From an uncultured bacterium (GTDB lineage Bacteria; Margulisbacteria; WOR-1; CAVSGV01): a stretch of 32,000 nucleotides of DNA. The notes under the pieces were generated by a model, which worked only from the letters and a program-made list of their open reading frames with translations, searched no databases and had not been told where the DNA came from. Every line of letters starts with the position of its first letter. Positions within the stretch are counted from its first letter, which is position 1. The position numbers and the translations under genes are program-made. The stretch spans positions 1,200,001 to 1,232,000 of the forward strand of contig OY969425.1 of assembly GCA_963699255.1 (NCBI GenBank). Reading direction: 5' to 3'. Shown here piece by piece: positions 11,930 through 28,886 of this stretch.

Positions 11930-13198
11930 ATGTGCTACACGATACCAGGAAAGGTCGTTGAAATTTCAGGTCATACCGCGATCATCGACTATTTCGGTGA
12001 AAAAAGGAAGGCCCTGAACGAGCTCGTGGACCTCAAGGTCGGCGATTACATCTACGCCCAGGGCGGATTCGTCATAAACACGCTCCCCGAAGCCGAAGCC
12101 TTGCAGGTGCTGGACGACTGGCGGGACATATTCTTCGCGCTCCAGAGGACGGACGTCCGCCTCTCGCGTCTCAAGCTTGACGACACAGGCGTGGACAGGT
12201 CTTTCGTCCGCATCCTTGATAAAGCGGCAGAGGCTAAGACGCTCGAAAGAGAAGAGCTGCTGGCGCTTATCCGGACAAAGAACAAAAAAGAGCTGAACCT
12301 TCTTTTCAAGGTCGCCAATTTCCTCCGGCAGAAATACCTTAAGAACGCGTGCTGCGTGCACGGGATAATCGAGTTCTCCAATTACTGCGTGAACGATTGC
12401 GAATACTGCGGGATAAGGAAAAGTGCCAAGATACCAAGATACCGGATGCCAGATATGGAAATACTTCAAGCTGTCGATGAAGCCGTTAACAAATACGGTT
12501 TCAAGGCCCTGGTGCTGCAGTCGGGTGAGGATCCCGAATTTTCAACTGACCGGCTGGCTGAAGTGATAAAAGAGATCAAAAAGAGATATGCCGTCCTTAT
12601 TTTCATATCGGTCGGGGAGATCGGCAAGCACGGCCTTCAAAAACTTTATGACGCGGGCGCCAGAGGGCTGCTTTTAAGGTTCGAGACCAGCAACCCCTGG
12701 CTATACTCGAAGCTGCACTGCGGCGACGAGCTTGAAGACAGGCTTAATGATATCAGAGATGCTTATGGGATAGGCTATCTGATACTGACGGGGGGATTGA
12801 TCGGTTTGCCCGGCCAGACCGAAGAAGATCTTTTGAACGATATCCTGCTCACGAAGGCGCTTCATGCGGAGATGTATTCATTCGGCCCTGTCCTTCCCAA
12901 TGGGCCGGAAACAGAGCTTGTGCTAAAGGTCCTTGCCGTGTCCAGGATCGTGGACCCCATGAACGCAAAGATCGTTGTTACCACCGGCTTTGAAACTCTC
13001 GAAAAGAACGCCAGGTCCCTGGGGCTTATGGCCGGCGCGAATTCGATGATGCTCAACGTGACGCCCATGAAATACAGGAAACTCTACAGCATCTATCCGA
13101 ACCGCGCCCACGAGGATGAGGAGATCGATGCTCAAATAAAGGAAGCTGTTGACCTGCTTTATTCTCTCGGAAGGGCACCTACAGATATAGGAATATAG
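11930..13198 (+). CDS. Fusion protein: N-terminal HypC/HupF-type [NiFe]-hydrogenase chaperone domain joined to a HydE-type radical SAM maturase domain
   Basis: The ORF is 422 aa and contains no internal stop. Residues 1 to ~72, MCYTIPGKVVEISGHTAIIDYFGEKRKALNELVDLKVGDYIYAQGGFVI, match the HypC hallmarks (Met-Cys N-terminus, GDY..hGGFai). The remainder matches HydE hallmarks: IIEFSNYCVNDCEYCGIRK (CX3CX2C), RYRM, LQSGEDP, LRFETSNP and GLPGQT. Confidence 0.8.
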   Translation: MCYTIPGKVVEISGHTAIIDYFGEKRKALNELVDLKVGDYIYAQGGFVINTLPEAEALQVLDDWRDIFFALQRTDVRLSRLKLDDTGVDRSFVRILDKAAEAKTLEREELLALIRTKNKKELNLLFKVANFLRQKYLKNACCVHGIIEFSNYCVNDCEYCGIRKSAKIPRYRMPDMEILQAVDEAVNKYGFKALVLQSGEDPEFSTDRLAEVIKEIKKRYAVLIFISVGEIGKHGLQKLYDAGARGLLLRFETSNPWLYSKLHCGDELEDRLNDIRDAYGIGYLILTGGLIGLPGQTEEDLLNDILLTKALHAEMYSFGPVLPNGPETELVLKVLAVSRIVDPMNAKIVVTTGFETLEKNARSLGLMAGANSMMLNVTPMKYRKLYSIYPNRAHEDEEIDAQIKEAVDLLYSLGRAPTDIGI

Positions 13199-13348
13199 GA
13201 ACAAGGGAATATGGGGATATGGTCTGGGGATTCAGGAAAAAAGGAAAGAGGAAAATAATAACACCTGATTATATGTAAGCTTCACCTGTTTTCCTTTATC
13301 CCTATTTTCCTAAACCATATCCCTATATCCCCACTTCCCAATATTCCT
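13189..13348. repeat. Long imperfect inverted repeat built from GGRATAT-type units (left arm 13189-13247, right arm 13290-13348)
   Basis: An ungapped comparison of the left arm with the reverse complement of the right arm gives 44 of 59 matching positions. This includes a perfect 10-mer, GGGATATGGT pairing with ACCATATCCC. The left arm shows about 8-nt periodicity (ATATAGGA ATATAGGA ACAAGGGA ATATGGGG ATATGG). It overlaps the last codons of the HypC-HydE gene and ends 15 nt before the -35 of the operon promoter. Confidence 0.65.
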
Positions 13349-13362
13349 TTCTCACAGTATGT

Positions 13363-13391
13363 TTGACGGCGAAGGCCATTCTTGATAAAAT
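13363..13391 (+). promoter_or_regulatory. Candidate operon promoter TTGACG-N17-(TGA)TAAAAT
   Basis: TTGACG is at 13363-13368 and TAAAAT at 13386-13391, preceded by TGA. The track's TTG start at 13382 lies inside this promoter. Confidence 0.45.
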
Positions 13392-13417: not shown

Positions 13418-14497
13418 ATGAAACAATACTTTATCAGTACTGCTAATTTTCAGGAATTGGTAAAAAAATTACTTAATGAATCGCCCGTTATCGCCCCCGT
13501 TAAATCTTTTAATAACCGCAATTTTGAGGAGATAAACGCGAAAAACCTCGAATGCATCGATATTTCCGGCTTCAGGACAGTGGAACCGTTCAAATCATAT
13601 CTTTTTAAATTGATCGAGAAAACCTCCGGATATTTTGGCAGCGACGAACCAACGCACGGGAAAGCGCTGACGATCATCGGCGCGCGGGGATGCGACCTTG
13701 AAGCGCTTGAGGTGCTGGACAGGGTCTTCGGCGAGGGCGACTTCAAGGATCCTTTCTATATATCCAGCCGCGAAAAGGTCCTTGTGATCGGGGCCGATTG
13801 CACCGACTGCGGGAAGACCTGTTTTTGCACCATGGTCAACGGCAAGCCGTATCCGGTCAAACTATTTGATCTGAACCTGTCCTCTATCAATGACGGATAT
13901 GTGGCGGCGGTCGGGTCAGATAAGGGCGGAAAGTTAATAGAAGACAATCCATTATTGTTCCTGCCGGCCACATCGATCTCCCTTGATGAAAAAGGGAAAA
14001 ATAGGGAAAAAACTATCGATCTGCTTGAGGAGAACAATAAAAACTTCAAGCTCAAACTTGACCTATCACTGACACATAAAAAGAACATTGAGAACAAGAT
14101 ATGGAAGGTCCTGACAAAGGACTGCGTTGAGTGCAGCGCCTGCAATTTTATTTGCCCCACCTGCACGTGTTTTCTCCTGCTTGACCAGAAAAATCCCCGA
14201 CACTCTGGTCGGAGCAAGGACGAGGCTGAGTACGAAAGATATAAGGTATGGGATGCGTGCCTTAAGGCCGGATACCAGAAAGTCGCCGGCGGAAGCAATC
14301 CCAGGGGCAGGCTTTCCGAGCGGCTCCAGAACAGGTATCATTGCAAATTCGATTACTCTTTTGACAGGCTGAACCGCTACACCTGCGTCGGATGCGGAAG
14401 GTGCATAGACGGGTGCGCGGGGAACATAGATATGCGGAAGATATTCGTCGAACTTGAGAAACAGGCGCCTCTGACGGCAAAACTGGAAGCACTATGA
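13418..14497 (+). CDS. Fe-S protein of the AsrA / sulfhydrogenase beta-subunit family
   Basis: CVECSACNFICPTCTCF and CVGCGRCIDGC are cluster motifs. The upstream GADCTDCGKTCFC is typical of AsrA/HydB-beta type proteins. I prefer the ATG at 13418 (MKQYF...) over the TTG at 13382. No clear RBS is visible. Confidence 0.7.
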   Translation: MKQYFISTANFQELVKKLLNESPVIAPVKSFNNRNFEEINAKNLECIDISGFRTVEPFKSYLFKLIEKTSGYFGSDEPTHGKALTIIGARGCDLEALEVLDRVFGEGDFKDPFYISSREKVLVIGADCTDCGKTCFCTMVNGKPYPVKLFDLNLSSINDGYVAAVGSDKGGKLIEDNPLLFLPATSISLDEKGKNREKTIDLLEENNKNFKLKLDLSLTHKKNIENKIWKVLTKDCVECSACNFICPTCTCFLLLDQKNPRHSGRSKDEAEYERYKVWDACLKAGYQKVAGGSNPRGRLSERLQNRYHCKFDYSFDRLNRYTCVGCGRCIDGCAGNIDMRKIFVELEKQAPLTAKLEAL

Positions 14498-15309
14498 ACG
14501 AAAATCCATACAGACCGGTAAAATCCAAGATCGAGGCGGTCATTACCGAGACCCCGACGATAAAGACCTTTGTCCTGAGGCCCGAGGAAAAGTTGTCTTT
14601 TGAATCGGGGCAGTTCATGCAGGTGACGGTACCGGGGATGGGCGAGTGCCCGTTCACGCCTTCTTCCGATCCCAAAAAAACAGATACCATCGAATTTACG
14701 ATAATGAAAGCCGGGAGCGTCACAAAGAGGCTCCACGAAATGAAGGAAGGCGAATATCTGGGAATACGGGGCCCTTACGGAAAGCCCTACCCTATCAGGG
14801 CCTTTTACGGAAAAGAAGTTTATGTCGTGGGCGGCGGCGTGGGACTGGCCCCGCTCAGGGCCCTTCTATTCGCGCTGTCCCACGAACTTGACCACCTGAA
14901 CAAGATAGAGGTCAGGTTCGGCGCGCGGACCCCGAGCGACATTTCGTACAAGAAAGCAATAGACGATTGGAGAAAATGGAAGAACACGAACATAGTCATC
15001 ACGGTGGATGCTTCTGAGCCGGGCTGGACCGGCAACGTCGGCTTGGTCACGACGATCCTGAAAGATGGCGATGTAAAAGTAAATAATGCCGTTGCCATAC
15101 TCTGCGGACCGCCAATTATGATGAAGTTCGCGAACAAAAGACTTCTCGACATGGGGTTTGACCCGAAGGGCATCTATCTGTCAATGGAAAAGAACATGAG
15201 CTGCGGCATAGGAAAATGTTTTCACTGCAACCTTGGGAAGTATTTTTGCTGCAAGGACGGCCCCGTGTTCACATGGGACCAGATTAAGGACATACCCGAA
15301 CCATGGTAG
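14494..15309 (+). CDS. FAD/NAD(P)-binding [2Fe-2S] oxidoreductase of the AsrB / sulfhydrogenase gamma / PyrK-like family
   Basis: 271 aa. GQFMQV...PFTPSS forms the flavin-binding barrel and VVGGGVGLAPL the NAD(P) fold. The C-terminal MSCGIGKCFHCNLGKYFCCKDGPVF is a 2Fe-2S motif. The start overlaps the upstream stop (ATGA). Confidence 0.8.
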   Translation: MNENPYRPVKSKIEAVITETPTIKTFVLRPEEKLSFESGQFMQVTVPGMGECPFTPSSDPKKTDTIEFTIMKAGSVTKRLHEMKEGEYLGIRGPYGKPYPIRAFYGKEVYVVGGGVGLAPLRALLFALSHELDHLNKIEVRFGARTPSDISYKKAIDDWRKWKNTNIVITVDASEPGWTGNVGLVTTILKDGDVKVNNAVAILCGPPIMMKFANKRLLDMGFDPKGIYLSMEKNMSCGIGKCFHCNLGKYFCCKDGPVFTWDQIKDIPEPW

Positions 15310-16727
15310 ATAAAAGAAAGACCACATGCCTTTTTTGTTCGCTCGGCTGCGGAGTGGCGTTCAGGACCGCAGCCGGACAGATCACAGCCATTGATTATGA
15401 CAGGGATAACCCGATCAATCAGGGTTCTCTTTGCCCCCGGGGTTATTACAATCTTGAGCTCATCAACCATCCGCAAAGGCTGACCCAGCCGCAGATCGGT
15501 AAAAGGAAAGTTTCATGGGATGAGGCGATCTCCTCCGCAAAAAGAGAGATGAAAAAGTTCGATCCCTCGTCCATCGGGATAGCGTTGTCCTCCATGGCAA
15601 GTAATGAGGATGCTTACGCGGCTTGCCTCATGGCGAATTCGATGGGAATAAAGAAAGTTTCATCGGTCGGGGATCCCGCAGATATCGAAGCGTTCGAGGG
15701 GGACAGATGGAGCGTTGAAGGATCGTCCCTTGAGAACATCGAGGGGATCGGCGGCCGCGACGCACTTCTGATAATTGGCGATATTCTGACCCGTTCGCCT
15801 GTGCTTTCAAAGTGGATCAACAAGGTTAAATACGGAAAAAGAGGCAATCAGATCATAGTGATCGATCCCAACACATCCCACACTTCCTGGTTCGCGACAA
15901 CGCACTTGAAAAACAGGCCGGGAACTGATGCGATCCTGATGGCCGCGATCCTGAAGGTGATCGCGGAGGAGAACAAAAGAGGGAGCATCGACATTGACCT
16001 GCAGAACGTCGCTCAGACCGTCGGGATCCCCGCTGAAGCAATAATCAGGGCGGCAAAGTCTTTTGACGAGGCGGAGTCGGGAACGATAATATTCGCGCCG
16101 GGAAGGAACATCCAGAGGAACGATCTGGTCCAATATTTTGTCAAAGCGGCTTCGAGCTTTTCGATCAATAAAAAGCACATTACTTTCTACAGCTTCGGCA
16201 ATGCTTTCGGCGTCAACACGATAATTGATTCGATGGTGGAAGGTCGGGAAAAGGGCATCAGCGGCGCAAAAGCCTTGATCTCTCTGGGTGAAAATGCCTT
16301 TGTTCCTGGAGTCAAGTTCACCGTATTATCAACTTACTTTGCGCCTGATGCGCTCGATGAAAGCACGGTCGTTCTTCCATTAGCCAGTCACATGGAGAGG
16401 AAGGGCAATGTGACCATGGCAGGGGGAAGGAACGTGAATTTCAAGCCGATAGTCCATAAGGTTGGCGGCAGGTCAAATGTGAAGATCATAAATTCCCTCG
16501 CTGATATAAAAATGGATTTTGACGAGATCCTGGCTCAGACAAGCCGGGTCCTCGCCCTAGGCATGAAAGTGGAGAAAGTCGACCTGAAACAGAAGATATC
16601 CGAGGCGCGGGATATCGCAGCAAGGCCTTCCGCCGCGGCAGAGAACATAACGCATTTCGGCAACAACGAGCTTGTTAAGAGGTTCTTCTGGTACAGGGTC
16701 AATAACAAAACCGGGGAGATGACATGA
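15303..16727 (+). CDS. Short molybdopterin-oxidoreductase (MopB)-like protein with an N-terminal [4Fe-4S] motif, no recognisable active-site Cys/Sec and no C-terminal MGD-binding barrel
   Basis: 474 aa. The sequence CLFCSLGCGV...LCPRG gives the CX2CX3C...C pattern. NEDAYAACLMANSMGIKKVSSVGDPAD stands where FdhH-type enzymes carry the ...R(I/L)(C/U)H segment. Only five Cys are present in total, and there is no in-frame TGA. Confidence 0.7.
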   Translation: MVDKRKTTCLFCSLGCGVAFRTAAGQITAIDYDRDNPINQGSLCPRGYYNLELINHPQRLTQPQIGKRKVSWDEAISSAKREMKKFDPSSIGIALSSMASNEDAYAACLMANSMGIKKVSSVGDPADIEAFEGDRWSVEGSSLENIEGIGGRDALLIIGDILTRSPVLSKWINKVKYGKRGNQIIVIDPNTSHTSWFATTHLKNRPGTDAILMAAILKVIAEENKRGSIDIDLQNVAQTVGIPAEAIIRAAKSFDEAESGTIIFAPGRNIQRNDLVQYFVKAASSFSINKKHITFYSFGNAFGVNTIIDSMVEGREKGISGAKALISLGENAFVPGVKFTVLSTYFAPDALDESTVVLPLASHMERKGNVTMAGGRNVNFKPIVHKVGGRSNVKIINSLADIKMDFDEILAQTSRVLALGMKVEKVDLKQKISEARDIAARPSAAAENITHFGNNELVKRFFWYRVNNKTGEMT

Positions 16728-17260
16728 CACAACAGCCGGATGTGAGGATCGATTCCGCGGTGCCGCGAGAAAAGTTCAACGGCAAAAGGGTCTATTTGAA
16801 CCTAGACCTTTGCTGCGGCTGCAGAAGCTGCGCCGCGGCCTGCGCGTACGGGCACCACATTCAGTCCCTTTTGGGCCACGGCAAGCTCGAGACTGAAGCA
16901 GAACTTCCTCTGCACTGCCTGCACTGCGATCAGCCGGCCTGCGCCGCTGCATGCCCTAATGAAGCAATGAAGAAAATGGACGATGGGATCGTCCTGAGAA
17001 GCCATTTTAAATGCGTCGGCTGCGGCTCATGCGCCGTAGCCTGCCCCTTCGGAGTGATCCATCCGGACCTCACAAAGCATATGGTCCCTAAATGCGATCT
17101 CTGCATCGATCGCCTGGCCGAAAGCGAGATACCCAGATGCGTGCAGAGCTGCACATCCGGAGCCCTTACTTTTGAGGAGATAGATGAGCAGGTAGTGGAT
17201 GAGAAAAAGAACCTGGCTTCTGTAAGGATACTTTCCAATTTTATCGGAAGGAGGAGATGA
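16724..17260 (+). CDS. HycB / DmsB-type multi-[4Fe-4S] ferredoxin subunit
   Basis: 178 aa with four Cys groups: CCGCRSCAAAC, CLHCDQPACAAACP, CVGCGSCAVACP and CDLC...CVQSC. Confidence 0.85.
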   Translation: MTQQPDVRIDSAVPREKFNGKRVYLNLDLCCGCRSCAAACAYGHHIQSLLGHGKLETEAELPLHCLHCDQPACAAACPNEAMKKMDDGIVLRSHFKCVGCGSCAVACPFGVIHPDLTKHMVPKCDLCIDRLAESEIPRCVQSCTSGALTFEEIDEQVVDEKKNLASVRILSNFIGRRR

Positions 17261-17940
17261 TGATGGCAAAACCTGAAGAACACATGGATAAAGCGTGCGT
17301 CTGTCTTCGGGAAGGCAAGTTCCGCGACGCGATAAAAGAATATCAGGAGGCGCTCCGGATAGACCCGAACAATGCGATAGCCCACAGATCTTTGGGGAGC
17401 TTATATTACCGTCAAACTATGCTCGATGAATCGATCGCCGAATTCAACAAGGCTATCCAGTTGAATCCGAACTATTCTGACGCTCATTACGAACTGGGGG
17501 TCTCGCTTTACAGGAGAGGAAGACTTGAGGAAGCGGTCAGATCGTTCGATGAGGCGCTGAGGATCAATCCTAATTTTCTGATCGCGAGATACTGGTTGGG
17601 TCTCTCATATTATTATATCGGAAAGCTTAATGAGGCAATAAAGGAATTCGATGCGGTAATAGACAAAGGGCCGAAGATAGAGATAGCCCATTACCACCTC
17701 GGCTCGGCTCTGGAGCAGGAAGGGAAGTTCGATGAAGCTATCCGGCAGTTCGAGGAGTTCGTAAAGGAGGTCCCGGAAAGCGCGGCGGCATACTATCACC
17801 TGGGGGTGAATTACTACAATAAGGGCGACGTCGAAAAGGCGATCGTAAATTTTAAAAAAGCGGTCGAGATCGATCCTTCGGATGAGCGGGCGAGAAAAAA
17901 TCTTTCAATGCTGGAGGACCTAAGGAGCCAGTTTTTTTAG
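17257..17940 (+). CDS. TPR-repeat protein (about 6 repeats) embedded in the hydrogenase operon
   Basis: 227 aa. TPR signatures recur, for example AIKEYQEALRIDPNNAIAH, AIAEFNKAIQLNPNYSDAHY and AVRSFDEALRINPNF. The ATG overlaps the upstream TGA, and the stop abuts the next ATG. Confidence 0.85.
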   Translation: MMMAKPEEHMDKACVCLREGKFRDAIKEYQEALRIDPNNAIAHRSLGSLYYRQTMLDESIAEFNKAIQLNPNYSDAHYELGVSLYRRGRLEEAVRSFDEALRINPNFLIARYWLGLSYYYIGKLNEAIKEFDAVIDKGPKIEIAHYHLGSALEQEGKFDEAIRQFEEFVKEVPESAAAYYHLGVNYYNKGDVEKAIVNFKKAVEIDPSDERARKNLSMLEDLRSQFF

Positions 17941-18870
17941 ATGATTGAATTCCTTTATTACATTTTGGTAATGCCGGGTTTTCTCTTCACGGCTTTCACA
18001 GGTCTGCTATCTACCTGGGTTGACCGCAAAGTGACCGCCAGATTGCAGTGGAGGCAGGGCCCTCCTATATTTCAACCGTTCGCGGATATCCTCAAACTGC
18101 TCGGTAAGGAAATAATGATCCCTGAAGGAGCCTCAAAGCTGGTCTTCCTGTCCGCGCCCCTCATCGGAATTGCGGCTGTAACGCTGGTTTCAACTATGTT
18201 ATGGATATTGAATATAAATATATATGGAAGTTTTGTCGGAGACCTTATCGTTATATATTACATGCTGATGATCCCATCGCTTGCCCTGATCATCGGCGGG
18301 TCGGCTTCAAGGAATCCGTTCTCGGCGATCGGAGCAAGCCGTGAAATGAAGCTTATCCTTGCTTATGAACTCCCTTTCATTATCGCGATAGCAACCGTCA
18401 TCGCGAGAACAGGTTCGATAATCATGGGAGATATTATCGGCTATCAATCCATGCACGGAATGATGATCGGGAGCTTCTCGGGCATCATCGCCTTTTTTGT
18501 GTCCCTGCTTGTGGTACAGGCAAAGCTGGGGTTCGTGCCTTTTGATGCATCGGAAGCCGAACAGGAAATAATGGCCGGCACTCTCCTCGAATACAGCGGC
18601 GCGCCGCTCGCGGCCTTCAAACTGACAAAGGCGATGCTTCTGTTCACTCTGCCGGTGCTGCTTATAACCCTGTTCCTTGGCGGGATCGATACCTATTCGC
18701 TTGCGGGCGCTCTCTGGTTCGTCTTAAAGTATTTCGTGATCCTGACGCTGATCATACTCATCAAGAACACCAATCCGAGGATCAGGATAGATCAGGCGGT
18801 CCGCTTTTTCTGGGGCCCGGTGACCGTTCTGGCCGTTATCGGATTCGTTCTCGCTATGATAGGAAGGTAA
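17941..18870 (+). CDS. Membrane subunit of group 4 [NiFe]-hydrogenase, NuoH / HycD / MbhM-like
   Basis: 309 aa and polytopic. The N-terminal WVDRKVTARLQWRQGPPIFQPFADILKLLGKE is the NuoH-family signature. Confidence 0.9.
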   Translation: MIEFLYYILVMPGFLFTAFTGLLSTWVDRKVTARLQWRQGPPIFQPFADILKLLGKEIMIPEGASKLVFLSAPLIGIAAVTLVSTMLWILNINIYGSFVGDLIVIYYMLMIPSLALIIGGSASRNPFSAIGASREMKLILAYELPFIIAIATVIARTGSIIMGDIIGYQSMHGMMIGSFSGIIAFFVSLLVVQAKLGFVPFDASEAEQEIMAGTLLEYSGAPLAAFKLTKAMLLFTLPVLLITLFLGGIDTYSLAGALWFVLKYFVILTLIILIKNTNPRIRIDQAVRFFWGPVTVLAVIGFVLAMIGR

Positions 18871-18871
18871 A

Positions 18872-19288
18872 ATGGCGGATCTTTATAAATGGGGATTGAA
18901 AAAATCTCCCTGGGTTTTTCACCTGGGCGCTTCGGCGTGCAATAACTGCGACATAGAGATTCTGGACACGCTCACGCCGAGATTCGACGTGGAGAGGTTC
19001 GGGATAACGCTCGTCGGCTCCCCCAGGCACGCGGATATCCTGGTCGTTTCCGGTATAGTGAACCGCCAATCCATTGAACGGTTCAGGAAGGTCTATGATT
19101 CCGTGCCGAAGCCGAAGGCCGTTGTCGCCATCGGGGTCTGTGCTTGCACCGCGGACATGTTCCGCGACAGCTATAATTTCGTTAAGCCCGTGGATGAGAT
19201 AATACCGGTGGATGTTTACGTGCCCGGATGCCCGCCCAAGCCGGAGGCGATAATATCGGGTATAATAAAGGCTCTGGAGAAAATATAG
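18872..19288 (+). CDS. [NiFe]-hydrogenase small subunit, NuoB / HycG / MbhJ-like
   Basis: 138 aa. Cluster ligands are SACNNCDIEIL, GVCACTADMF and PGCPPKPEA. An AGGAAGG RBS lies upstream. Confidence 0.9.
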   Translation: MADLYKWGLKKSPWVFHLGASACNNCDIEILDTLTPRFDVERFGITLVGSPRHADILVVSGIVNRQSIERFRKVYDSVPKPKAVVAIGVCACTADMFRDSYNFVKPVDEIIPVDVYVPGCPPKPEAIISGIIKALEKI

Positions 19289-20918: not shown

Positions 20919-22693
20919 ACATACTGCTTTACACTATAGCAATGCCGATAGTGTCTTCTTTACTATGCTTTTTCTCAAAGCGCTCGTCGCCATGGATAGC
21001 TCTTGTTATCTCCGCGGCAGAGATATTGCTTGCAGTAAGGATATTCTTTTTCGGAAACGCTATCTCCACCCTTTACTTTCACGCCTACGTACTTAACTCC
21101 GGCATTTTCCTGGCCGCTTCGGCCTTTTCATTGCTGATCGTCCTCTACTCTCTCAAGTTCATGGAAGGTGACGAACGACTAGGGGAATATTACGCATATA
21201 TACTGATAACTATGGGCGCGGCGGCAGGAGCCTTATTCGCGAATGATTATTTCACTCTCCTTTCATTCTGGGGGGTCCTCGGGGCGACCTTATATATGTT
21301 GATCGGGATCGCCGGAGCGAGCGCGGCTTCCTCTGCGAAAAAAACTTTCATCATAGTCGGCGGGTCGGATGCCGTGATGATATTCGGGATAGGCACGGTA
21401 TGGCTAATGACAAGAAGCCTTCAGATAGGGATTTTCCCGATAGCCATGTGCGGGGTCCTCCCTGTGATCGCCTTCCTCTCTCTTTTGTCCAGTGCTCTTG
21501 CAAAAGCTGGAGCCATGCCTTTCCATAGCTGGCTGCCGGATTGCGCCGAGGCGGCTCCTGTTCCGGTAACCGCTTATCTTCCGGCTTCTCTGGATAAACT
21601 TTTAGGCATATATCTCCTGTTCAGGTTGTGTACGGACATATTCCAGGTCACCCCTAATTCTCCTGTGTCGATACTTCTGCTTGTTATCGGTTCCTTTACC
21701 ATTATTGCCGGCGTAATGGCGGCACTTGTACAACACAACATGAGAAAGCTGCTTTCGTTCCACGCGATATCGCAGGTGGGTTACATGGTGCTGGGCATAG
21801 GGACGGCGCTTCCGATCGGGATGGCGGGCGCACTTTTTCACATGTTGAACCATACAATATATAAAAGCTGCCTTTTCCTGACAAGCGGATCGGTAGAGAA
21901 AGAAATGGGAACGGGAGAGCTTGATGAACTGGGCGGCGCGGCAGTATCTATGCCGATTACTTTCGTCAGTGCGGCGGTCGCCGCACTTTCCATCTCCGGG
22001 ATACCACCTTTCAACGGCTTCTTCTCTAAGTGGATGATATACCAGGGCATTATCGAGCTTTCCGGAACAAGCAGGCTCTGGATAATATGGCTGTGCGCTG
22101 CGATGTTCGGGAGCGCCCTGACGCTCGCTAGTTTCATAAAGCTGATCCACGCCGTTTATCTCGGGCAGGGCTCTGGCAAAAAACCTGAACCAAGAGAAGC
22201 CCCCTGGCAGATGTGGCTGCCGCCGGCGATACTCGCGTCACTCTGCGTAGTGTTCGGCATTTTTGCTTTTTCAGTTCCTCTCCCCTATTTCGTACTTCCT
22301 TCAGTAAAAGGGATAATTTACAGCGGATACTGGAACCCGGTTCTTGCGACTGCATTGATATTGATAGGTCTGCTGATAGGGCTTCTGGTCTATTGGCTTG
22401 GAAAGGAAAGAACGACTCTTACCAGCCCCGTCTATATCGGCGGCGAAGAAATTGAAGAAACCAGGGTTAAAGTTTCCGGGACCGGATTTTATAATACCAT
22501 AAGGGATTACGGACCCCTTGACGTTATTTATCGTTTCGCGGAAAGAAAGCTATTCGATATTTATGAGCTCGGCTCAAAGCTTGTTTCCATGCTCTATGAT
22601 GTGCTTGGTTTTCTCCATAACGGGCTTTTGCACACTTATCTGGCATGGATGTTCCTGGGGTTCGCGCTGATTATGCTGTTCATTATCTTTTAG
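20915..22693 (+). CDS. Antiporter-like membrane subunit, NuoL / MrpA N-terminal / MbhH-like
   Basis: 592 aa and polytopic. Proton-pump family motifs include WLPDCAEAAPVPVTAYL, HAISQVGYMVLGIG and GIPPFNGFFSKW. Confidence 0.85.
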   Translation: MNILLYTIAMPIVSSLLCFFSKRSSPWIALVISAAEILLAVRIFFFGNAISTLYFHAYVLNSGIFLAASAFSLLIVLYSLKFMEGDERLGEYYAYILITMGAAAGALFANDYFTLLSFWGVLGATLYMLIGIAGASAASSAKKTFIIVGGSDAVMIFGIGTVWLMTRSLQIGIFPIAMCGVLPVIAFLSLLSSALAKAGAMPFHSWLPDCAEAAPVPVTAYLPASLDKLLGIYLLFRLCTDIFQVTPNSPVSILLLVIGSFTIIAGVMAALVQHNMRKLLSFHAISQVGYMVLGIGTALPIGMAGALFHMLNHTIYKSCLFLTSGSVEKEMGTGELDELGGAAVSMPITFVSAAVAALSISGIPPFNGFFSKWMIYQGIIELSGTSRLWIIWLCAAMFGSALTLASFIKLIHAVYLGQGSGKKPEPREAPWQMWLPPAILASLCVVFGIFAFSVPLPYFVLPSVKGIIYSGYWNPVLATALILIGLLIGLLVYWLGKERTTLTSPVYIGGEEIEETRVKVSGTGFYNTIRDYGPLDVIYRFAERKLFDIYELGSKLVSMLYDVLGFLHNGLLHTYLAWMFLGFALIMLFIIF

Positions 22694-22700
22694 GAGTGAC

Positions 22701-23213
22701 ATGATAGAATTATACCTTTTGATGGTTTTTATAATAATTGCGGCGATGATCGCCGTTGAAAACCACACCTTGCTTTCGTCAATAATTTCACTTGGAGCCG
22801 TGGGGTTAGGGCTGTGCATAATATTCTTGATCCTCGGCGCTCCCGAACTTGCGATAACGCAGCTCGTTGTCGAGATACTCGTTCTTATTGTGCTTATACG
22901 CGCCACCATTGCCGTGTCGGTCCCGGAAACCTACAAGGGAAGGGAATTCCTGTCATACATGATGGCGATAGGTTTCATACTCCTGTTCATGGCCGGCTCG
23001 TTCTTCGCGTTCGGCAATCTTCCGGAATTCGGTGCTCCCATAATGAAATCCGCGAAAATATACATTGAAAATAGCGCCGGAGCTGCCGCGGAAAATCTTG
23101 TGACGACAGTTGCATTGAAATTCAGGAGGTTCGACTCTATTGGAATGGTGGCGATCATCTTTACTTCTGTCATAGGAACACTGGTCATCTTAAGGCAAAA
23201 AGGAAGGAAATAA
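22701..23213 (+). CDS. MrpA C-terminal-like subunit (MbhD/DUF4040-type segment plus MnhB-type segment)
   Basis: 170 aa. The N-terminal hydrophobic segment contains APELAITQLVVEILV. The segment NLVTTVALKFRRFDSIGMVAIIFTSVIG resembles the MnhB-domain motif. An AGGAG RBS lies upstream. Confidence 0.65.
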   Translation: MIELYLLMVFIIIAAMIAVENHTLLSSIISLGAVGLGLCIIFLILGAPELAITQLVVEILVLIVLIRATIAVSVPETYKGREFLSYMMAIGFILLFMAGSFFAFGNLPEFGAPIMKSAKIYIENSAGAAAENLVTTVALKFRRFDSIGMVAIIFTSVIGTLVILRQKGRK

Positions 23214-23217
23214 TTCA

Positions 23218-23607
23218 ATGAGCGGTATGGGTTTGATAGTGAAAACGGTCACAAGGGTTACTGTAGGTGTCATATTTCTTTTCGGATGCTACATCTCCGC
23301 GCAAGGTCATACCACCCTTGGCGGCGGACTTGCAGGAGGGGTCGTTATAGCTCTTGCTTTCATATTATATGTTCTTGCCTACGGCAGGACCCATGCGGAA
23401 GAAAGGCTCGGCAGGCAGCTTGCTTTGATTTTTATGGAACTTGGAGCTATCTTTTTTCTGCTGCTCTCGTTCTTCGGCTGCAAGCCGGAAGGATGTTATG
23501 AATGCATATTATGCAATCTTGCGATATCGGTGATGTCCGGCGCCGGACTTTTTGTCGTTTTCTTGAACTTTACCGCATTCAAGGCAAAGATAAGGGAGGA
23601 AAAATAA
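23218..23607 (+). CDS. MrpB / MnhB-like antiporter subunit
   Basis: 129 aa. GHTTLGGGLAGGVVIAL resembles the GHxxPGGGFxGG motif of MrpB. Confidence 0.65.
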   Translation: MSGMGLIVKTVTRVTVGVIFLFGCYISAQGHTTLGGGLAGGVVIALAFILYVLAYGRTHAEERLGRQLALIFMELGAIFFLLLSFFGCKPEGCYECILCNLAISVMSGAGLFVVFLNFTAFKAKIREEK

Positions 23608-23903
23608 TGGCGGCATATCTCTTGTGTGTCGTTCTGTTCCTTATCGGAGTATATTGCGTCGCTGTCAAAAAGAACCTGATAAAGATCATAGTCGGCCTTG
23701 TGATAATGGAATACTCAATGAACCTTTTGCTTGTGGTCGTTGGCTACCGCGGAGGCGCTGTGGACCCGCTTGCTCAGGCTTTCGCGCTGGCAATGATCGC
23801 GGTAGGACTTGCGACCACAATAACAATGTCCTCGATCGCAATGAGGATATATGACAGACTTGGCACATTTGACATTACAAAGATAGGCAAGCTGAAAGGA
23901 TAA
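23607..23903 (+). CDS. MrpC / NuoK-like antiporter subunit
   Basis: I prefer the ATG at 23607 (MAAYLLCVVLFLIGVYCV...), which overlaps the upstream TAA by 1 nt and has a GGGAGG RBS. It has three TM helices and the NuoK-like IVGLVIMEYSMNLLLV segment. The track start at 23502 lies inside the previous gene. Confidence 0.75.
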   Translation: MAAYLLCVVLFLIGVYCVAVKKNLIKIIVGLVIMEYSMNLLLVVVGYRGGAVDPLAQAFALAMIAVGLATTITMSSIAMRIYDRLGTFDITKIGKLKG

Positions 23904-23905
23904 GC

Positions 23906-25393
23906 ATGATCAACGTTTTGCCGATATTCATTTTACTTCCGCTCGGCGCAGGCTTCCTTATGCTTATGGCATATAGGACCGGAAAGAATTTGCCGGATTT
24001 TATCGGAAATGCCGCGACTTTCTTCCTGGCAGCGATGGCACTTTCACTTTACTTTTTCCGTCCGTTCGGAGCCGTGATGATATTTAAGACAGGATATTTT
24101 CCTGCCGGTATAGGGATCAATCTGGTCCTGGACGGATTAAGCCATTTGCTCCTTCTGATCGTTAATCTTGTGGCTTTCTTTATTACATTTTATTCTGTTT
24201 CATACATGGATAAATATTCAAAAAAAGAAAAATATTATTCACTTCTCATGCTAATGGTCGCCGGCATGAATGGCGCGATCCTGACCGGAGATCTTATCAG
24301 CTTTTTCGTCTTCATGGAACTGGCCGCTATTTCCGGGAGCGTGCTGGTGGCTTTCGGCACGGAGTATGAAGAGCTGGAGGCTTCCTTTAAATACCTTGTC
24401 ATGGGATCAGTGGCGTCCATCTTCATTCTCTTTGCCGTCATCATGATATATTCCATTACAGGTACCACGAACATGGCGGATATCGCGCAGTGTTTCCCCG
24501 GCAACGCCAACTATGCCAAGATGCTGATAACGCTCCTCTTTTTGATAGGATTCGGCACAAAGGCCGCCATTATCCCTTTCCATGCATGGCTTCCGGACGC
24601 ACACCCCGCAGCCCCCGCTCCGATCTCCGCGATGCTTTCCGGTGTCCTTATTAAGGCACTGGGTATTTATGCGCTGGTAAGGACCTTCTTTAATGTGCTC
24701 GGGATGACTCATCAGCTATCCAATATTTTCATGATGCTTGGCGTAATATCCTTGCTTGCCGGAGTAATAATGGCCCTTGGACAGTGGGATCTTAAGAGGC
24801 TTCTAGCTTATCACAGCATTTCGCAGGTCGGATATATAATTCTCGGTATCGGGCTCGCGACGCCTCTCGGAGTTCTGGGCGGCCTTTTCCACCTTTTCAA
24901 CCATGCCATCTTCAAGTCGCTCCTCTTCCTGACAGCCGGCTCCGTGGAGCACTCCACTGGAACAAGGCAGCTCAAGGAGCTTGGCGGACTGCGCCAGAAG
25001 ATGCCTGTTACGTCGAATGCGTCTCTCGCGGCATCCCTTGCTATCTCAGGACTACCGCCGTTCAACGGCTTCTGGAGCAAGCTTTTTATCATCATTGCCT
25101 GCATACAGGCCGGAAAGCTATGGTTCGCGGCAGCGGCAGTGATCGGGAGCATTTTAACGCTTGCCTCATTCATGAAGGTGCAAAAATACGTTTTCTTCGA
25201 GAAGCTGCCGGCTCAGCTGCGCGATACCAAAGAATCTCCCTGGTTCATGGGCGCTCCCATGGTGATCCTTGCTTTGCTCTGTCTTGCCGTCGGGCTTTTC
25301 TTTCCCGTTATCGTGAACTTTCTGATAAATCCGGCCGTTGTGTCGGTGTCGATCGGCACCGGATACGGCCAGCTTGTCCTGGGAGGCAATTAA
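23906..25393 (+). CDS. MrpD / NuoM-N-like antiporter subunit
   Basis: 495 aa. Motifs include WLPDAHPAAPAPISAMLSGVLIK, HSISQVGYIILGIG and GLPPFNGFWSK. Confidence 0.85.
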   Translation: MINVLPIFILLPLGAGFLMLMAYRTGKNLPDFIGNAATFFLAAMALSLYFFRPFGAVMIFKTGYFPAGIGINLVLDGLSHLLLLIVNLVAFFITFYSVSYMDKYSKKEKYYSLLMLMVAGMNGAILTGDLISFFVFMELAAISGSVLVAFGTEYEELEASFKYLVMGSVASIFILFAVIMIYSITGTTNMADIAQCFPGNANYAKMLITLLFLIGFGTKAAIIPFHAWLPDAHPAAPAPISAMLSGVLIKALGIYALVRTFFNVLGMTHQLSNIFMMLGVISLLAGVIMALGQWDLKRLLAYHSISQVGYIILGIGLATPLGVLGGLFHLFNHAIFKSLLFLTAGSVEHSTGTRQLKELGGLRQKMPVTSNASLAASLAISGLPPFNGFWSKLFIIIACIQAGKLWFAAAAVIGSILTLASFMKVQKYVFFEKLPAQLRDTKESPWFMGAPMVILALLCLAVGLFFPVIVNFLINPAVVSVSIGTGYGQLVLGGN

Positions 25394-25876
25394 ATGGTCA
25401 AGAGAGGGAGTCAAACGCTGGGTTTTGTGATCGCTTTCCTGGTATGGCTTATGCTTACCTGGAAGATCGATCCTATGAACATCGCGCTGGGTTCGATCTT
25501 TTCGCTTCTGGCAGCGATCTTCTTCGGGGATCTCCTCACTGTCACGCCGGAGCGCGCTCTTCACCCTGTGAGATATTTTTGGCTTCTTTATTACCTGCCG
25601 ATCTTCCTGTGGCAGATGGTTAAATCGAACATCGACGTAGCTTACAGGGTCCTGCATCCGAAACTCCCGATAAATCCCGGCTTGATCAAAGTTAAGATCA
25701 ACCTTAATAGCGACGTTTCCAAGGCGCTTCTCGCGAATTCCATCTCCCTTACTCCCGGAAGCACGACCGTTGACATAATCGGGGACCAGATATACATTCA
25801 CTGCATAGATGTGGACCGTCCGGTCAGGGAAGAAGTTGAAATGTTCGAGAAAATAATCGCAAGGATACTTGAATGA
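25394..25876 (+). CDS. MrpE / MnhE-like antiporter subunit
   Basis: 160 aa with an N-terminal TM pair. SISLTPGSTTVDI is typical of MnhE. The gene sits in the canonical D-E-F-G order. Confidence 0.7.
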   Translation: MVKRGSQTLGFVIAFLVWLMLTWKIDPMNIALGSIFSLLAAIFFGDLLTVTPERALHPVRYFWLLYYLPIFLWQMVKSNIDVAYRVLHPKLPINPGLIKVKINLNSDVSKALLANSISLTPGSTTVDIIGDQIYIHCIDVDRPVREEVEMFEKIIARILE

Positions 25877-26130
25877 TAAATATACTGATATATATTTTAA
25901 CGCTCTGCTGTTTCATATGTCTTTACAGGATATTTAAGAGCCCGACGCCGGCCGACCGCGCGGTCGCGGTGGATATTCTCGGGATAGTGGTGATAGGCTT
26001 CTGCTCGCTTCTGTCCGTTTCGATCCACAAGGGTTTCTTGATGGATATCGCGATCGCCTGGACGCTGCAGAGCTATATAGCGGTCCTTGCCATCGCGAAA
26101 TACCTGGAGGGGAAGCGCTTCGATGAATGA
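25873..26130 (+). CDS. MrpF / MnhF-like antiporter subunit
   Basis: 85 aa with three TM helices and the motif PTPADRAVAVDILGIVVIG. The start overlaps the upstream stop (ATGA). Confidence 0.7.
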   Translation: MINILIYILTLCCFICLYRIFKSPTPADRAVAVDILGIVVIGFCSLLSVSIHKGFLMDIAIAWTLQSYIAVLAIAKYLEGKRFDE

Positions 26131-26464
26131 AATGATCGGATACTTTTTTATTACCGTGGGAGTGCTGTTCAATCTGTTCGGATGCATAGGGTTGATCAGG
26201 CTGCCGGATATTTACAACCGCCTTCAGGCGGCGGCGAAATGCGCCACGCTGGGGACCTGCGGGACTCTACTGGGTGTTTTTATCATTAACGGTTTTGGCG
26301 CGACGGGCATGAAAGCGCTGCTGGCGATGATCTTCGTCCTTTTGACCGCCCCGACGGCGGCGCAGGCGCTGTCAAAAGCAGCGTATAAGTCAGGCATAAA
26401 AGCCTGGAAGAAAAACGGTAAGGAAGAGTCAATAGAGGAGAAAGAACTGCGTGAAGCTCCCTAA
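26123..26464 (+). CDS. MrpG / MnhG-like antiporter subunit
   Basis: The likely start is the ATG at 26123 (MNEMIGYFFITVGVLFNLFGCIGLIRLPDIYNRLQAAAK), which carries the MnhG signature. The ATG at 26132 is an alternative. It overlaps the end of the MrpF-like gene. Confidence 0.7.
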   Translation: MNEMIGYFFITVGVLFNLFGCIGLIRLPDIYNRLQAAAKCATLGTCGTLLGVFIINGFGATGMKALLAMIFVLLTAPTAAQALSKAAYKSGIKAWKKNGKEESIEEKELREAP

Positions 26465-27050
26465 AATAAGAGAACTCGGAGAAGCGATAAAAGCCTTGAT
26501 GCTTGGCCCTTACACATCAGGGTTCCCTTTCAAGCAGCCGGTGATCCCCGACGGCTTCCGCGGCAAGCCCCAGTTCTACCAGGATGACTGCGTAGGATGC
26601 CTCGCGTGCGTCGAGGTCTGCCCCGCCCGCGCCATCGAATATGTTGACGACAAAAAGACAAAGCTAAGGACCCTGACCCATCACCAGGATATCTGCATCT
26701 ACTGCCAGCAATGCGAGCGCGCCTGCATAACCGAAAAAGGGATAATGCTCACGAAAGAATACGATCTTGCGACATTTGACAGAAAGAGATCGTTCACTCA
26801 GTCGATAAAAGCGCTTGTCATCTGCGAGCACTGCGGCGGCATTGTTGCTCCTCTCGACCACCTGAAATTCCTCGCAAAGAAAGTCGGCCACCTTCTGTAC
26901 TCGAACCCCACCCTTCTCCTTGCAAGGCATGATGAGCTGAAGCTGCTCGAAGCCGATCGGCCCTCAAGCAGCCCTCACAAAAGAGCCGACCATCTCAAAA
27001 TGCTCTGCCCCAACTGCAGGAGAGAGATAATACTGAAGGAGCAATGGTGA
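26451..27050 (+). CDS. 2x[4Fe-4S] ferredoxin subunit, NuoI / HycF-like, with a C-terminal CxxC...CxxC extension
   Basis: 199 aa with a GTG start. The cluster motifs are CVGCLACVEVCP and CIYCQQCERAC. The C-terminal CEHCGG...CPNCRRE resembles the HycF tail. Confidence 0.8.
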   Translation: MKLPKIRELGEAIKALMLGPYTSGFPFKQPVIPDGFRGKPQFYQDDCVGCLACVEVCPARAIEYVDDKKTKLRTLTHHQDICIYCQQCERACITEKGIMLTKEYDLATFDRKRSFTQSIKALVICEHCGGIVAPLDHLKFLAKKVGHLLYSNPTLLLARHDELKLLEADRPSSSPHKRADHLKMLCPNCRREIILKEQW

Positions 27051-27051
27051 C

Positions 27052-27387
27052 ATGCACGAGCTCGGATTAGCAGAAGACATATTAAGAAAAATAAAGGAAG
27101 AAGCAAGGATCAGAGGGCTTTCGAAGGTTTCTTATGCTAAAATAAGGATCGGGGAAACGCTGGTGACCGACCAGCCGGAGCTTGTTGAGTTGTTCTCAAT
27201 GATCTCAGCAGGGACCCCGGCGGAAGGAACCAAACTTGATATAGTTATCTCCCCGCTGAAATCCGTTTGCGGAAACTGCAAAAAGGAGTTCAACCCGAAG
27301 GTCATCAGATTTGACTGCCCCGGCTGCGGATCAAACAGCATAAACATTGCTTCGGGCAAAGAGCTTGTAATAGAGGAAATAAAATAA
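27052..27387 (+). CDS. hypA: [NiFe]-hydrogenase nickel-insertion metallochaperone HypA
   Basis: 111 aa. It has the N-terminal MHE Ni-binding motif and the zinc site CGNC...CPGC. It starts 2 nt after the upstream stop. Confidence 0.85.
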   Translation: MHELGLAEDILRKIKEEARIRGLSKVSYAKIRIGETLVTDQPELVELFSMISAGTPAEGTKLDIVISPLKSVCGNCKKEFNPKVIRFDCPGCGSNSINIASGKELVIEEIK

Positions 27388-28886
27388 TGAATCCATTAGC
27401 TCAACTTGAAACCTCGGACTGGATAAAAGAACGGGTAAAACCGCAGGAAAATTCCCGCTACATGGATCACGGGATGGATTTCATAAGCGAATATGAGATA
27501 TCCCGCCATCTTGAAGGCAACCGTAACCCGTCCAGGCAGCAGATAAGGGATATCATACAGAAAGCTTTAACTATCGAGCGGCTGGAGCCGCAAGAGACCG
27601 CTGCTTTGCTGAATGTGACCGATCCTGATCTGTGGCAGGAAATATTCAATGCAGCGGGAAAGATAAAAAAAGCCGTATATGACAACAGGATAGTCACGTT
27701 CGCGCCTCTTTACTGCGGAAGCTACTGCGTCAACAACTGCCTCTACTGCGCTTTCCGCAAAAGCAACCATGAAGAGCTCAGGCGCGTCCTAAGTATGGAT
27801 GAGATAAAGCGCGAAACAGAGGTTCTGGCGGGAGAGATAGGCCATAAGCGCCTTATTGCGGTGTTCGGCGAACATCCCGCGACGGACGCTGGATATATGG
27901 TGGCGGTCCTGCGGTCAATTTACAGCGTAAAGGTCCCCACAAAGACAGGATATTCAAATATAAGACGAGTGAACATCAACGGCGCCCCGCTTTCCATTGA
28001 AGAATTCAGGATGATAAAAGTTGCGGGCATCGGGACATATCAGATATTCCAGGAAACATACCATCACGTGACTTACGCGAAGGTGCATCCGATAGAAACA
28101 GTGAAAGCGGATTACGCATGGCGCCTGTACGCTCTCCACAGGGCTCAGGAAGCCGGAATTGATGATGTAGCCATAGGGGTCTTGTTCGGGCTTTATGACT
28201 GGAAGTTCGAGGTTATGGGACTGCTTTATCATGCCATTGATCTTGAAAAACACTTCGGCGTCGGGCCGCATACGATATCTTTCCCAAGGCTTGAGCCTGC
28301 GGCCAACACGCCCTTGGCCGAGAATTCGAAATATAAAGTATCCGATGAAGATTTCAAGAAGCTGGTCGCGGTTCTTAGGCTGTCTATCCCCTACGCTGGC
28401 ATGATATTGACGGCAAGGGAAAGCGCGGAGATCAGGCGGCAGGTGATACCGCTGGGCATCACGCAGATCGACGCTTCAACAAAGATAGGCATAGGCGCAT
28501 ATTCTGACCGGTATAGCGAACAGGAGCTTAAGAACCAGCAGTTCCTTATCGGTGATCCCAGGTCGCTTGATGAGGTCATACGCGAACTTGCCGATACCGG
28601 CTATATCACAAGCTTCTGTACCGCCGGATACAGATGTTCAAGGACCGGGAAGTGCATAATGGACCTTCTCAAGTCCGGCAAGGAGAGATGGTTCTGCAAA
28701 GTGAACGCCGTCCTGACTTACAAGGAATGGCTCAATGATTTCGCGTCTCCCGAGACGAAAGCCAAGGGTGAGGCGATCATAAAAAAAGAAATTGAAGAGA
28801 TAAAAACACAAGTCCCCACTATTTATCCGCAGTTCGCTGCTATGTATGACAGGATCCAGAAGGGCGAGAGAGATCTTTACTTCTAG
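27387..28886 (+). CDS. HydG-type radical SAM enzyme (tyrosine-lyase family), full length, with a variant C-terminal Cys motif
   Basis: 499 aa. Hallmarks include LEPQETAALLNV, FAPLYCGSYCVNNCLYCAFRKSN (CX3CX2C), RRVNINGAP, GIGTYQIFQETYH, GVGPHTISFPRLEP and SIPYAGMILTARES. The C-terminus ends GERDLYF, as I recall it from characterised HydG proteins. The C-terminal cluster region reads FCTAGYRCSRTGKCIMDLLKSGKERWFC. The ATG overlaps the hypA TAA (TAATG). Confidence 0.85.
   Translation: MNPLAQLETSDWIKERVKPQENSRYMDHGMDFISEYEISRHLEGNRNPSRQQIRDIIQKALTIERLEPQETAALLNVTDPDLWQEIFNAAGKIKKAVYDNRIVTFAPLYCGSYCVNNCLYCAFRKSNHEELRRVLSMDEIKRETEVLAGEIGHKRLIAVFGEHPATDAGYMVAVLRSIYSVKVPTKTGYSNIRRVNINGAPLSIEEFRMIKVAGIGTYQIFQETYHHVTYAKVHPIETVKADYAWRLYALHRAQEAGIDDVAIGVLFGLYDWKFEVMGLLYHAIDLEKHFGVGPHTISFPRLEPAANTPLAENSKYKVSDEDFKKLVAVLRLSIPYAGMILTARESAEIRRQVIPLGITQIDASTKIGIGAYSDRYSEQELKNQQFLIGDPRSLDEVIRELADTGYITSFCTAGYRCSRTGKCIMDLLKSGKERWFCKVNAVLTYKEWLNDFASPETKAKGEAIIKKEIEEIKTQVPTIYPQFAAMYDRIQKGERDLYF

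Follow-up and report, generated by a model that had tools for sequence, protein, structure and literature searches.

A HypC-HydE fusion protein and HydG as candidate maturases of [NiFe] hydrogenases in uncultured anaerobic bacteria

Genomic organization of the locus

The stretch of 32,000 nucleotides analyzed here (referred to as the window, whose positions serve as coordinates) comes from contig OY969425.1 of an uncultured WOR-1 bacterium and carries a group 4 [NiFe] hydrogenase operon together with relatives of HydE and HydG, two radical S-adenosylmethionine (SAM) maturases known only to act on [FeFe] hydrogenases, with all the genes of interest on the plus strand. The original prediction, made from the sequence alone, had placed a HydE-like gene at the left and a HydG-like gene at the right of one plus-strand block, and both are there. 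The first (11930 to 13198) encodes a protein of 422 amino acids (aa), identified by profile and structure matches, in which a HypC domain (aa 1 to 76) precedes a radical SAM domain (aa ~96 to 422), and the second (27387 to 28886) encodes a HydG of 499 aa.

Between them lie the genes of the hydrogenase. Family profile matches identify an AsrA/sulfhydrogenase-beta-like FeS subunit (13418 to 14497), an AsrB/sulfhydrogenase-gamma-like subunit that binds flavin adenine dinucleotide (FAD) and NAD(P) (14494 to 15309), a short (474-aa) Fdh-alpha/NuoG-like molybdopterin oxidoreductase (15303 to 16727) and a CooF/HybA-like 4Fe-4S ferredoxin subunit (16724 to 17260). They are followed by a tetratricopeptide repeat protein (17257 to 17940), known from the window annotation and kept in the loci of relatives, a NuoH/HycD-like membrane subunit (17941 to 18870, family match), the NuoB-like [NiFe] small subunit (18872 to 19288, profile matches), a NuoC-like subunit assigned by family match (19228 to 19740, with the real start probably after 19288) and the NuoD-like [NiFe] large subunit (19740 to 20918). 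Eight genes of an Mrp/Mbh-type antiporter-like membrane module (20915 to 26464), recognized by family matches and from the loci of relatives, and a NuoI/HycF-like 2x[4Fe-4S] subunit (26451 to 27050, profile matches) lead to the gene for the nickel metallochaperone HypA (27052 to 27387) and to hydG.

The genes from 13418 to 28886 touch or overlap, forming a gap-free run of ~15.5 kb that ends in hydG, and at its end the hypA stop codon TAA (27385 to 27387) and the hydG ATG (27387 to 27389) overlap by one base, 27387, as had been claimed. The gap-free arrangement also proposed for this block holds for this run and not for the fusion gene, which is set apart from the asrA-like gene by ~220 bp holding a promoter-like site (13363 to 13391, plus strand; a consensus match only), so that the fusion gene may have its own transcript.

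The large subunit retains intact L1 (RICGICSTSH) and L2 (DPCYCCTER) motifs, in agreement with the original prediction, followed by a 30-residue C-terminal extension. Matches to Complex1_49kDa and NiFeSe_Hases, Oxidored_q6, Complex1_30kDa and NuoH, with a NuoI-like partner, assign the enzyme to group 4. HypA matches PF01155 (88.3 bits) and has the MHE N-terminus (MHELG) and the paired CxxC zinc site (CGNC and CPGC), with a score below the NCBIfam equivalog cutoff (75.7 versus 88.1).

The HypC-HydE fusion protein

The fusion of HydE to a HypC domain, another claim of the original prediction, was borne out by the profile searches. Residues 1 to 76 match HupF_HypC (PF01455, 52.4 bits against a cutoff of 28.5; TIGR00074, 49.4 bits against 48) as well as HypC of Thermococcus kodakarensis (E = 5e-14) and begin with MCYTIPG. 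Residues 96 to 417 match the HydE model TIGR03956 with 223.3 bits, under its equivalog cutoff of 254.6, and the radical SAM domain, with the motif CVNDCEYC, aligns with the PDB sequence of Thermotoga maritima HydE at 198 bits. An AlphaFold2 model of the fusion (predicted local distance difference test score [pLDDT] of 83.6 and predicted template modeling score [pTM] of 0.85) compared by Foldseek gave a TM score of 0.88 to T. maritima HydE (root mean square deviation of 1.9 Å, 37% identity), a match that clearly beats those to PylB and BioB. These proteins are currently annotated as "biotin synthase," "radical SAM protein" or "HypC."

The start MCY[AT]IPG is invariant in the 39 fusions compared, including Cys2. 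HypC-first is the only domain order that leaves this cysteine at the N-terminus, and no second HypC was found in any of the 80 fusion loci described below. These features of the HypC domain would fit the role of a carrier. In comparison with the HypC structures from T. kodakarensis, Shewanella oneidensis and Escherichia coli, the position of the conserved HypC histidine (His51 of E. coli HypC) is occupied by an invariant glutamine (Gln44) in the fusions.

Four other fusions scored 218 to 248 bits against TIGR03956, so that all five tested (that of the window and four relatives) fall below the HydE cutoff, while the canonical HydE of one of the fusion loci (L065) reached 330.7 bits. In a quick neighbor-joining tree computed without support values, the HypC-fused radical SAM domains formed two clades outside the canonical HydE set, which included HydE of Thermodesulfovibrio yellowstonii.

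The HydG partner

The window HydG is a full member of its family, passing TIGR03955 with 444.7 bits (cutoff, 312) over aa 29 to 499 and aligning over its full length with HydG of Thermoanaerobacter italicus (4WCX, 450 bits). It carries the radical SAM motif CVNNCLYC and three C-terminal cysteines at the canonical overall span, with the middle one shifted (CX5CX19C, FCTAGYRC...FC, versus CX2CX22C). The HydG partners of the four relatives tested scored 473 to 537 bits with the same model, all above the cutoff. His282, which we take as the dangler-iron ligand from our reading of the 4WCX alignment, is conserved in 62 of the 62 sequences compared. All the partners retain the radical SAM cysteines, the three auxiliary-cluster cysteines and this histidine, and they look fully functional in these predicted ligands.

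The shifted spacing was considered as a marker of HydGs dedicated to [NiFe] enzymes and rejected: it is present in 120 of the 120 best homologues, T. yellowstonii HydG among them, and many HydGs linked to the fusion have CX2CX22C.

Distribution and genomic neighborhoods of the fusion

We searched for the fusion family in 5.8 billion proteins, in 1.84 billion cluster representatives and in one genome per GTDB species. The protein set yielded more than 3,000 homologues, and the best 120, all but one with both domains, are 64 to 100% identical to the window fusion. Among the cluster representatives, about 25 clusters at 50% identity begin with a HypC domain, and these are the top-scoring matches. 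Relatives were found in the genomes of at least 133 GTDB species, from which we took 80 loci with 10-kb flanks for neighborhood counts. These loci derive from Margulisiibacteriota, Omnitrophota, Brevinematales/Spirochaetota and metagenome-assembled genomes (MAGs) labeled Planctomycetota, and the close relatives of the window fusion belong to Candidatus Margulisiibacteriota (Saganbacteria/WOR-1). An identical copy has been recorded from a contig of 1.77 Mb, and the carriers of the fusion include the closed genomes CP070797.1, CP070684.1 and MEUD01000001.1.

In 63 of the 80 loci, the 10 kb on either side of the fusion include one or more [NiFe] structural genes. Because the same fusion adjoins [NiFe] hydrogenase genes in so many loci of other species, the arrangement goes far beyond chance, and the survey of relatives suggested with the original prediction thus found the adjacency of HydE and HydG to [NiFe] genes conserved. 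We could distinguish four types of neighborhood. In the window type, the fusion is followed by the hydrogenase operon, with hypA and hydG at the end (L003, L005, L008, L009, L016 and L020). In Omnitrophota, an Mrp-linked group 4 operon ends with NuoI, in some cases HypA, the fusion and HydG (L032, L050, L055, L059, L062 and L068). The commonest type, with about 40 loci, combines a group 3b hydrogenase (AsrA-like, AsrB-like, small and large subunits) with a HycI protease, an 80-aa HypA, the fusion, sometimes Rex, and HydG. The last type joins an Ech-like group 4 hydrogenase to HypA and the fusion (L057, L071, L079 and L080). In the window type, one relative with 81% identity (L003:10001-21266) has the same operon minus the ~5.5-kb Mrp module, so that NuoI, HypA and HydG come straight after NuoD.

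The recurrent module consists of the HycI protease, the short HypA, the fusion, optionally Rex, and HydG; Pfam matches bear out the assignment of HycI, of the short HypA and of the group 3b large subunit. The short HypA, directly 5' of the fusion (L044:9663-9908, L076:9751-9993 and about 40 others), keeps the nickel-binding MHE N-terminus and has lost the entire zinc-finger domain. Of the 80 loci, 36 contain HydG, which in 15 cases starts no more than 150 bp after the end of the fusion. In three independent lineages, HypC, HydE and HydG form a single polypeptide (L059, 10001 to 12766, 921 aa; P0244, 906 aa; P0254, 881 aa).

Two other kinds of HydE-like architecture appeared in the searches. 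One protein (P0270, 803 aa) joins HydE to HydG and has no HypC domain. Four HydE-like proteins of ~424 to 444 aa (P0292, P0294, P0320 and P0322) have an N-terminal extension, which in P0292, the only one of the four scanned, is the putative Se/S carrier domain PF11823; extended proteins of this type would be another fusion of a carrier to HydE.

The two radical SAM enzymes might instead make something other than a hydrogenase cofactor, for example, a cofactor for the AsrAB/molybdopterin module or a thiamin- or biotin-like metabolite, with the HypC-like domain being merely a carrier fold. The Joint Genome Institute annotation, which calls one gene biotin synthase and the other 2-iminoacetate synthase, would agree with such a product, as would the fusion score below the HydE cutoff and the ThiO-like FAD oxidase just 3' of hydG in this lineage. 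Against this, the module also accompanies hydrogenases that have no molybdopterin subunit (group 3b and the Mrp-linked group 4 of Omnitrophota), its constant neighbors are HypA and the HycI protease, searches by sequence and by structure alike put HydE well ahead of any other match to the radical SAM domain, and the partner has the full C-terminal cluster domain of HydG, which ThiH lacks. We find this explanation scarcely credible.

Maturases not found at the loci

The other known maturases were sought with tblastn, using as queries HypD of E. coli and T. kodakarensis, two HypE sequences, HypF and HypB of E. coli, and HydF and HydA of T. yellowstonii. The queries for HypD, HypE and HypF were validated against PDB. 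In line with the original prediction, none of HydA, HydF, HypB, HypD, HypE and HypF was found in the window by Pfam, tblastn or a scan of all six frames for H-cluster motifs. We also considered whether a minimal [FeFe] hydrogenase might be hidden there and rejected this, as the motif scan gave no match in a real open reading frame (ORF). A HydG would be expected to work with HydE, HydF and an [FeFe] hydrogenase, and within the window neither HydF nor HydA accompanies it. The tblastn searches of the 80 loci with their flanks detected no HypD, HypE or HypF, and HypB was detected in only two (L021 and L075).

In a single locus, an 85-aa ORF right 3' of hydG (L027:12757-13014) matches HydF over its C-terminal, cluster-binding part alone (residues 322 to 392, 48% identity).

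A candidate route for [NiFe] hydrogenase maturation

We consider it probable that HydG and the HypC-HydE fusion form a module for the maturation of [NiFe] hydrogenases, supplying the Fe-CO/CN unit to their large subunits. The original prediction had proposed such a hybrid route, in which diatomic ligands generated by radical SAM chemistry reach a [NiFe] enzyme via HypC, and the conserved synteny and the gene fusions support this reading without proving it. HydG is known to convert tyrosine, cysteine and iron to [Fe(CO)2(CN)(cysteinate)]- via an Fe(CO)(CN) intermediate, and HydE takes this product as its substrate (PMC8855341).

Each chemical step of the route that we infer would build on these reactions. 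HydG would cleave tyrosine and, as in the maturation of [FeFe] enzymes, would build up an organometallic Fe(CO)x(CN)y-cysteine synthon at its dangler iron, and its product here would be the same synthon or a closely related one. The HydE-like domain would accept the synthon and remove the cysteine scaffold by radical SAM chemistry. This would leave a mononuclear Fe-CO/CN unit that would not dimerise on HydF but would be captured by Cys2 of the covalently linked HypC domain, which would pass it to the apo large subunit. Nickel would then be supplied by HypA, and a HycI-type protease, adjacent in most relatives and presumably encoded elsewhere in this genome, would cut off the C-terminal extension. 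In this scheme, the radical SAM domain would take the scaffold role that HypD has for HypC, and HydG would take the ligand-supply role of HypE and HypF as well as that of the anaerobic CO source.

A stronger form of the proposal is that HydG and the fusion make the Fe(CO)(CN) unit wholly from tyrosine, without HypD, HypE or HypF, in uncultured anaerobes that include Margulisiibacteriota and Omnitrophota. We advance this only tentatively, as a possibility to which we would give somewhat less than an even chance.

Several observations weigh against the role in [NiFe] maturation, and they are considered here together with the alternatives that they favor. To begin with, 17 of the 80 loci (e.g., L018, L067, L074 and L082) have no hydrogenase gene within 10 kb of the fusion, and therefore any hydrogenase that it serves must be elsewhere in those genomes. 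Some of these loci retain HydG or the short HypA, and several of the contigs are short. In a curated complete WOR-1 genome, the fusion lies between ribD and ATP synthase genes (L018:10001-11269, MEUD01000001.1).

A second group of observations concerns the relationship to [FeFe] systems. The window HydG is 66% identical to that of T. yellowstonii, which has the same CX5CX19C spacing and sits in a classical [FeFe] cluster (hydA-hydA-lyase-hydG-hydF-hydE). Phylogenies of both proteins had been suggested to see whether they stand apart from [FeFe]-associated relatives. The HydE domains did fall into clades of their own; the HydG partners did not and were intermixed with [FeFe]-linked HydGs. They are polyphyletic, some with CX2CX22C and others, including that of the window, with CX5CX19C, and both trees are quick neighbor-joining reconstructions that carry no support values. 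Furthermore, in six loci (L030, L031, L038, L039, L064 and L065), an [FeFe] HydA-like gene with NuoE/F-like partners is found 3' of the cluster of group 3b genes and fusion, 5 to 6 kb from the fusion, and HydG is nearer to the HydA-like gene than to the fusion. The HydA-like gene is followed by HydG in L030, L031, L064 and L065, by a canonical unfused HydE in L030, L064 and L065, and by the start of HydF in L065.

The HydA-like genes themselves (L030:16099-17865, L031, L064, L065 and L039) have TSCSSAW or TSCSPGW in place of TSCCP, with the proton-relay cysteine replaced by serine, and four of the five have MCCTAK in place of MPCxxK. Genes for Rex and a histidine kinase precede them, and the proteins may be sensory-type enzymes.

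Taken at face value, the HydG that passes its curated model, its similarity to the T. yellowstonii protein and the six HydA-like genes could mean that these are ordinary [FeFe] maturases serving an [FeFe] hydrogenase elsewhere in the genome, their position beside [NiFe] genes reflecting shared regulation of hydrogen metabolism and not function. Such an account would leave unexplained the covalently attached HypC with its conserved Cys2 and the HypC-HydE-HydG triple fusions. HydF-like ORFs are not recurrent, being confined to the start at the end of L065 and the fragment in L027, and no [FeFe] hydrogenase is listed for any Saganbacteria group (PMC6349859, Supplementary Data 22). Moreover, the fusion scores below the HydE equivalog cutoff, falls in separate clades and coexists with a canonical HydE in loci that carry an [FeFe] hydrogenase; on this sequence evidence, it is a distinct paralogue and not simply the HydE of an [FeFe] system. 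We regard ordinary [FeFe] maturation as very unlikely. Since the fusion is a separate paralogue while its HydG partners are ordinary and polyphyletic, the fusion appears to be the specialized component and HydG an exchangeable supplier.

The last two observations bear on how complete the module is. The window encodes no HycI-type protease, which its large subunit needs, so that some maturation genes must be elsewhere in this genome. In addition, the ligands do not add up: the HydG product is Fe(CO)2(CN) and the [NiFe] site is Fe(CO)(CN)2, and an extra step is needed. This step might be a ligand exchange, or the unit might be released at the Fe(CO)(CN) stage or later and receive a second cyanide, or these enzymes might have a non-canonical ligand set.

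Both points would be accommodated if HypC, HypD, HypE and HypF encoded elsewhere made the Fe(CN)2 unit as usual and HydG and the fusion supplied only CO, or a pre-carbonylated iron, under anoxic conditions, in parallel to HypX under aerobic ones. A 2025 review of the [NiFe] cofactor considers HypABCDEF necessary and the anaerobic source of CO the most pressing open question (PMC12134894), which leaves room for such an addition, and the presence of HypB in only 2 of the 80 loci implies that the neighborhoods are not complete kits. On the other hand, the 80 neighborhoods are without HypD, HypE and HypF, yet the protease and HypA are present in them; the histidine of HypCs that partner HypD is the invariant glutamine in the fusion; and HydG yields cyanide besides CO, which would make a second cyanide pathway redundant. 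An accessory role of this kind seems unlikely to us, and we retain maturation by HydG and the fusion as the preferred reading.

Relationship to known maturation systems

HydG, HypC and HypA are members of known families, and the HydE-like domain is, by its profile scores, a sister group that fails the curated threshold. Their combination joins the [FeFe] and [NiFe] maturation systems and remains within the known field of hydrogenase active-site maturation. That maturases can be fused to one another is known from the algal HydEF protein. With the HydE/HydF/HydG system, the locus shares a full HydG and the HydE fold of the radical SAM domain. It differs from it in that the HydF scaffold and HydA are absent from the window and from most related loci, and in that the HydE-like domain is fused to HypC, belongs to separate clades below the curated threshold and neighbors [NiFe] genes, HypA and HycI.

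In common with the HypABCDEF system are a HypC domain with the essential N-terminal cysteine, HypA, a HycI-type protease in the relatives and a target large subunit with the canonical L1 and L2 cysteine motifs and a C-terminal extension. Unlike in that system, the neighborhoods lack HypD, HypE and HypF and rarely contain HypB, HypC is fused to a radical SAM enzyme and has its histidine exchanged for glutamine, and the proposed ligand source is tyrosine, via HydG, instead of carbamoyl phosphate. HypX offers a parallel in concept, as an accessory enzyme that feeds a diatomic ligand to the Hyp machinery, but it belongs to an unrelated family, uses formyl-tetrahydrofolate/coenzyme A chemistry and provides CO only. 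No ORF of the window matched HypX in the general Pfam and NCBIfam scans, which included no search aimed at it. HmdB/HcgA, which acts on the FeGP cofactor of [Fe] hydrogenase, is likewise a HydE/BioB-like radical SAM enzyme recruited to a non-[FeFe] class of hydrogenase. Its target enzyme and cofactor are different, and fusions reach only 48 to 76 bits with its model TIGR03957 (cutoff, 320.9).

The hydrogenase of the window resembles the "enigmatic" Mrp-linked group 4 [NiFe] hydrogenase of Saganbacteria RX5A described by Matheus Carnevali et al. in 2019 (PMC6349859), which also comprises asrA- and asrB-like, cooF-like, NuoHBCD-like, Mrp and NuoI-like subunits and an "unclassifiable" molybdopterin subunit, the counterpart of the window protein encoded at 15303 to 16727. 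A term search of the main text and supplements of that paper found no mention of a flanking HypC-HydE fusion, HypA or HydG. The window protein has the Fe4S4 and Molybdopterin domains with no match to the C-terminal dinucleotide-binding domain; it resembles the C-terminal part of NuoG as much as Fdh and may be non-catalytic.

For Omnitrophota, MAGs from Ace Lake were reported to have one hydrogenase each, of type 3b, 4g, 3d or [FeFe] (PMC8542988), which speaks for the role in [NiFe] maturation. In our full-text literature searches, we came across neither a HypC-HydE fusion nor an action of HydE or HydG on [NiFe] enzymes, and a 2024 survey of archaeal hydrogenases did not describe them either; the 2025 review mentions neither HydG nor radical SAM enzymes (PMC12134894).

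Other features of the window

Apart from the genes described above, the window encodes a GH94 phosphorylase, two sensor kinases, a reductase, a response regulator, an amino-acid-oxidase-like protein and a glycosyltransferase. Just 3' of hydG, a DAO-family FAD oxidase is conserved in the lineage (window, 29945 to 31018; L084:11492-12562; L083:3843-4916). The glycine oxidase ThiO is among its best matches (103 bits, below the cutoff), and the ThiO product, dehydroglycine, is the same intermediate that HydG and ThiH make from tyrosine, possibly by coincidence. In the window, a 311-aa ORF without Pfam or NCBIfam match (28934 to 29869) separates hydG from the DAO gene; since it is absent from the corresponding position in a relative with 82% identity (L084), it looks like an insertion. 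On the other side of the locus, a second seven-transmembrane (7TM) kinase and a divergent response regulator sit just upstream of the fusion gene. Further upstream, the region from 3000 to 8000 has a GC content of 0.36 to 0.41, compared with ~0.50 elsewhere, and holds two small ORFs that belong to no family, a 7TM-GAF histidine kinase and a reductase.

Implications

Matches to HydE and HydG are used as markers of the capacity for [FeFe] hydrogenase, and the fusion family would confound this use. If HypD, HypE and HypF are absent from the genomes that carry the fusion, the system would amount to a new pathway. For heterologous production of [NiFe] hydrogenase, the proposed route would, if true, provide a compact set of four structural genes plus the protease, HypA, the fusion and HydG. 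Were the synthesis from tyrosine alone to hold, there would be a second, radical-SAM-based pathway to the [NiFe] cofactor, with a defined anaerobic source of CO and maybe a non-canonical set of CO and CN ligands. More generally, a module that couples HydG to HypC would offer a concrete and testable answer to the question of the origin of CO in many uncultured anaerobes and would connect the chemistry by which the two main classes of hydrogenases are matured.

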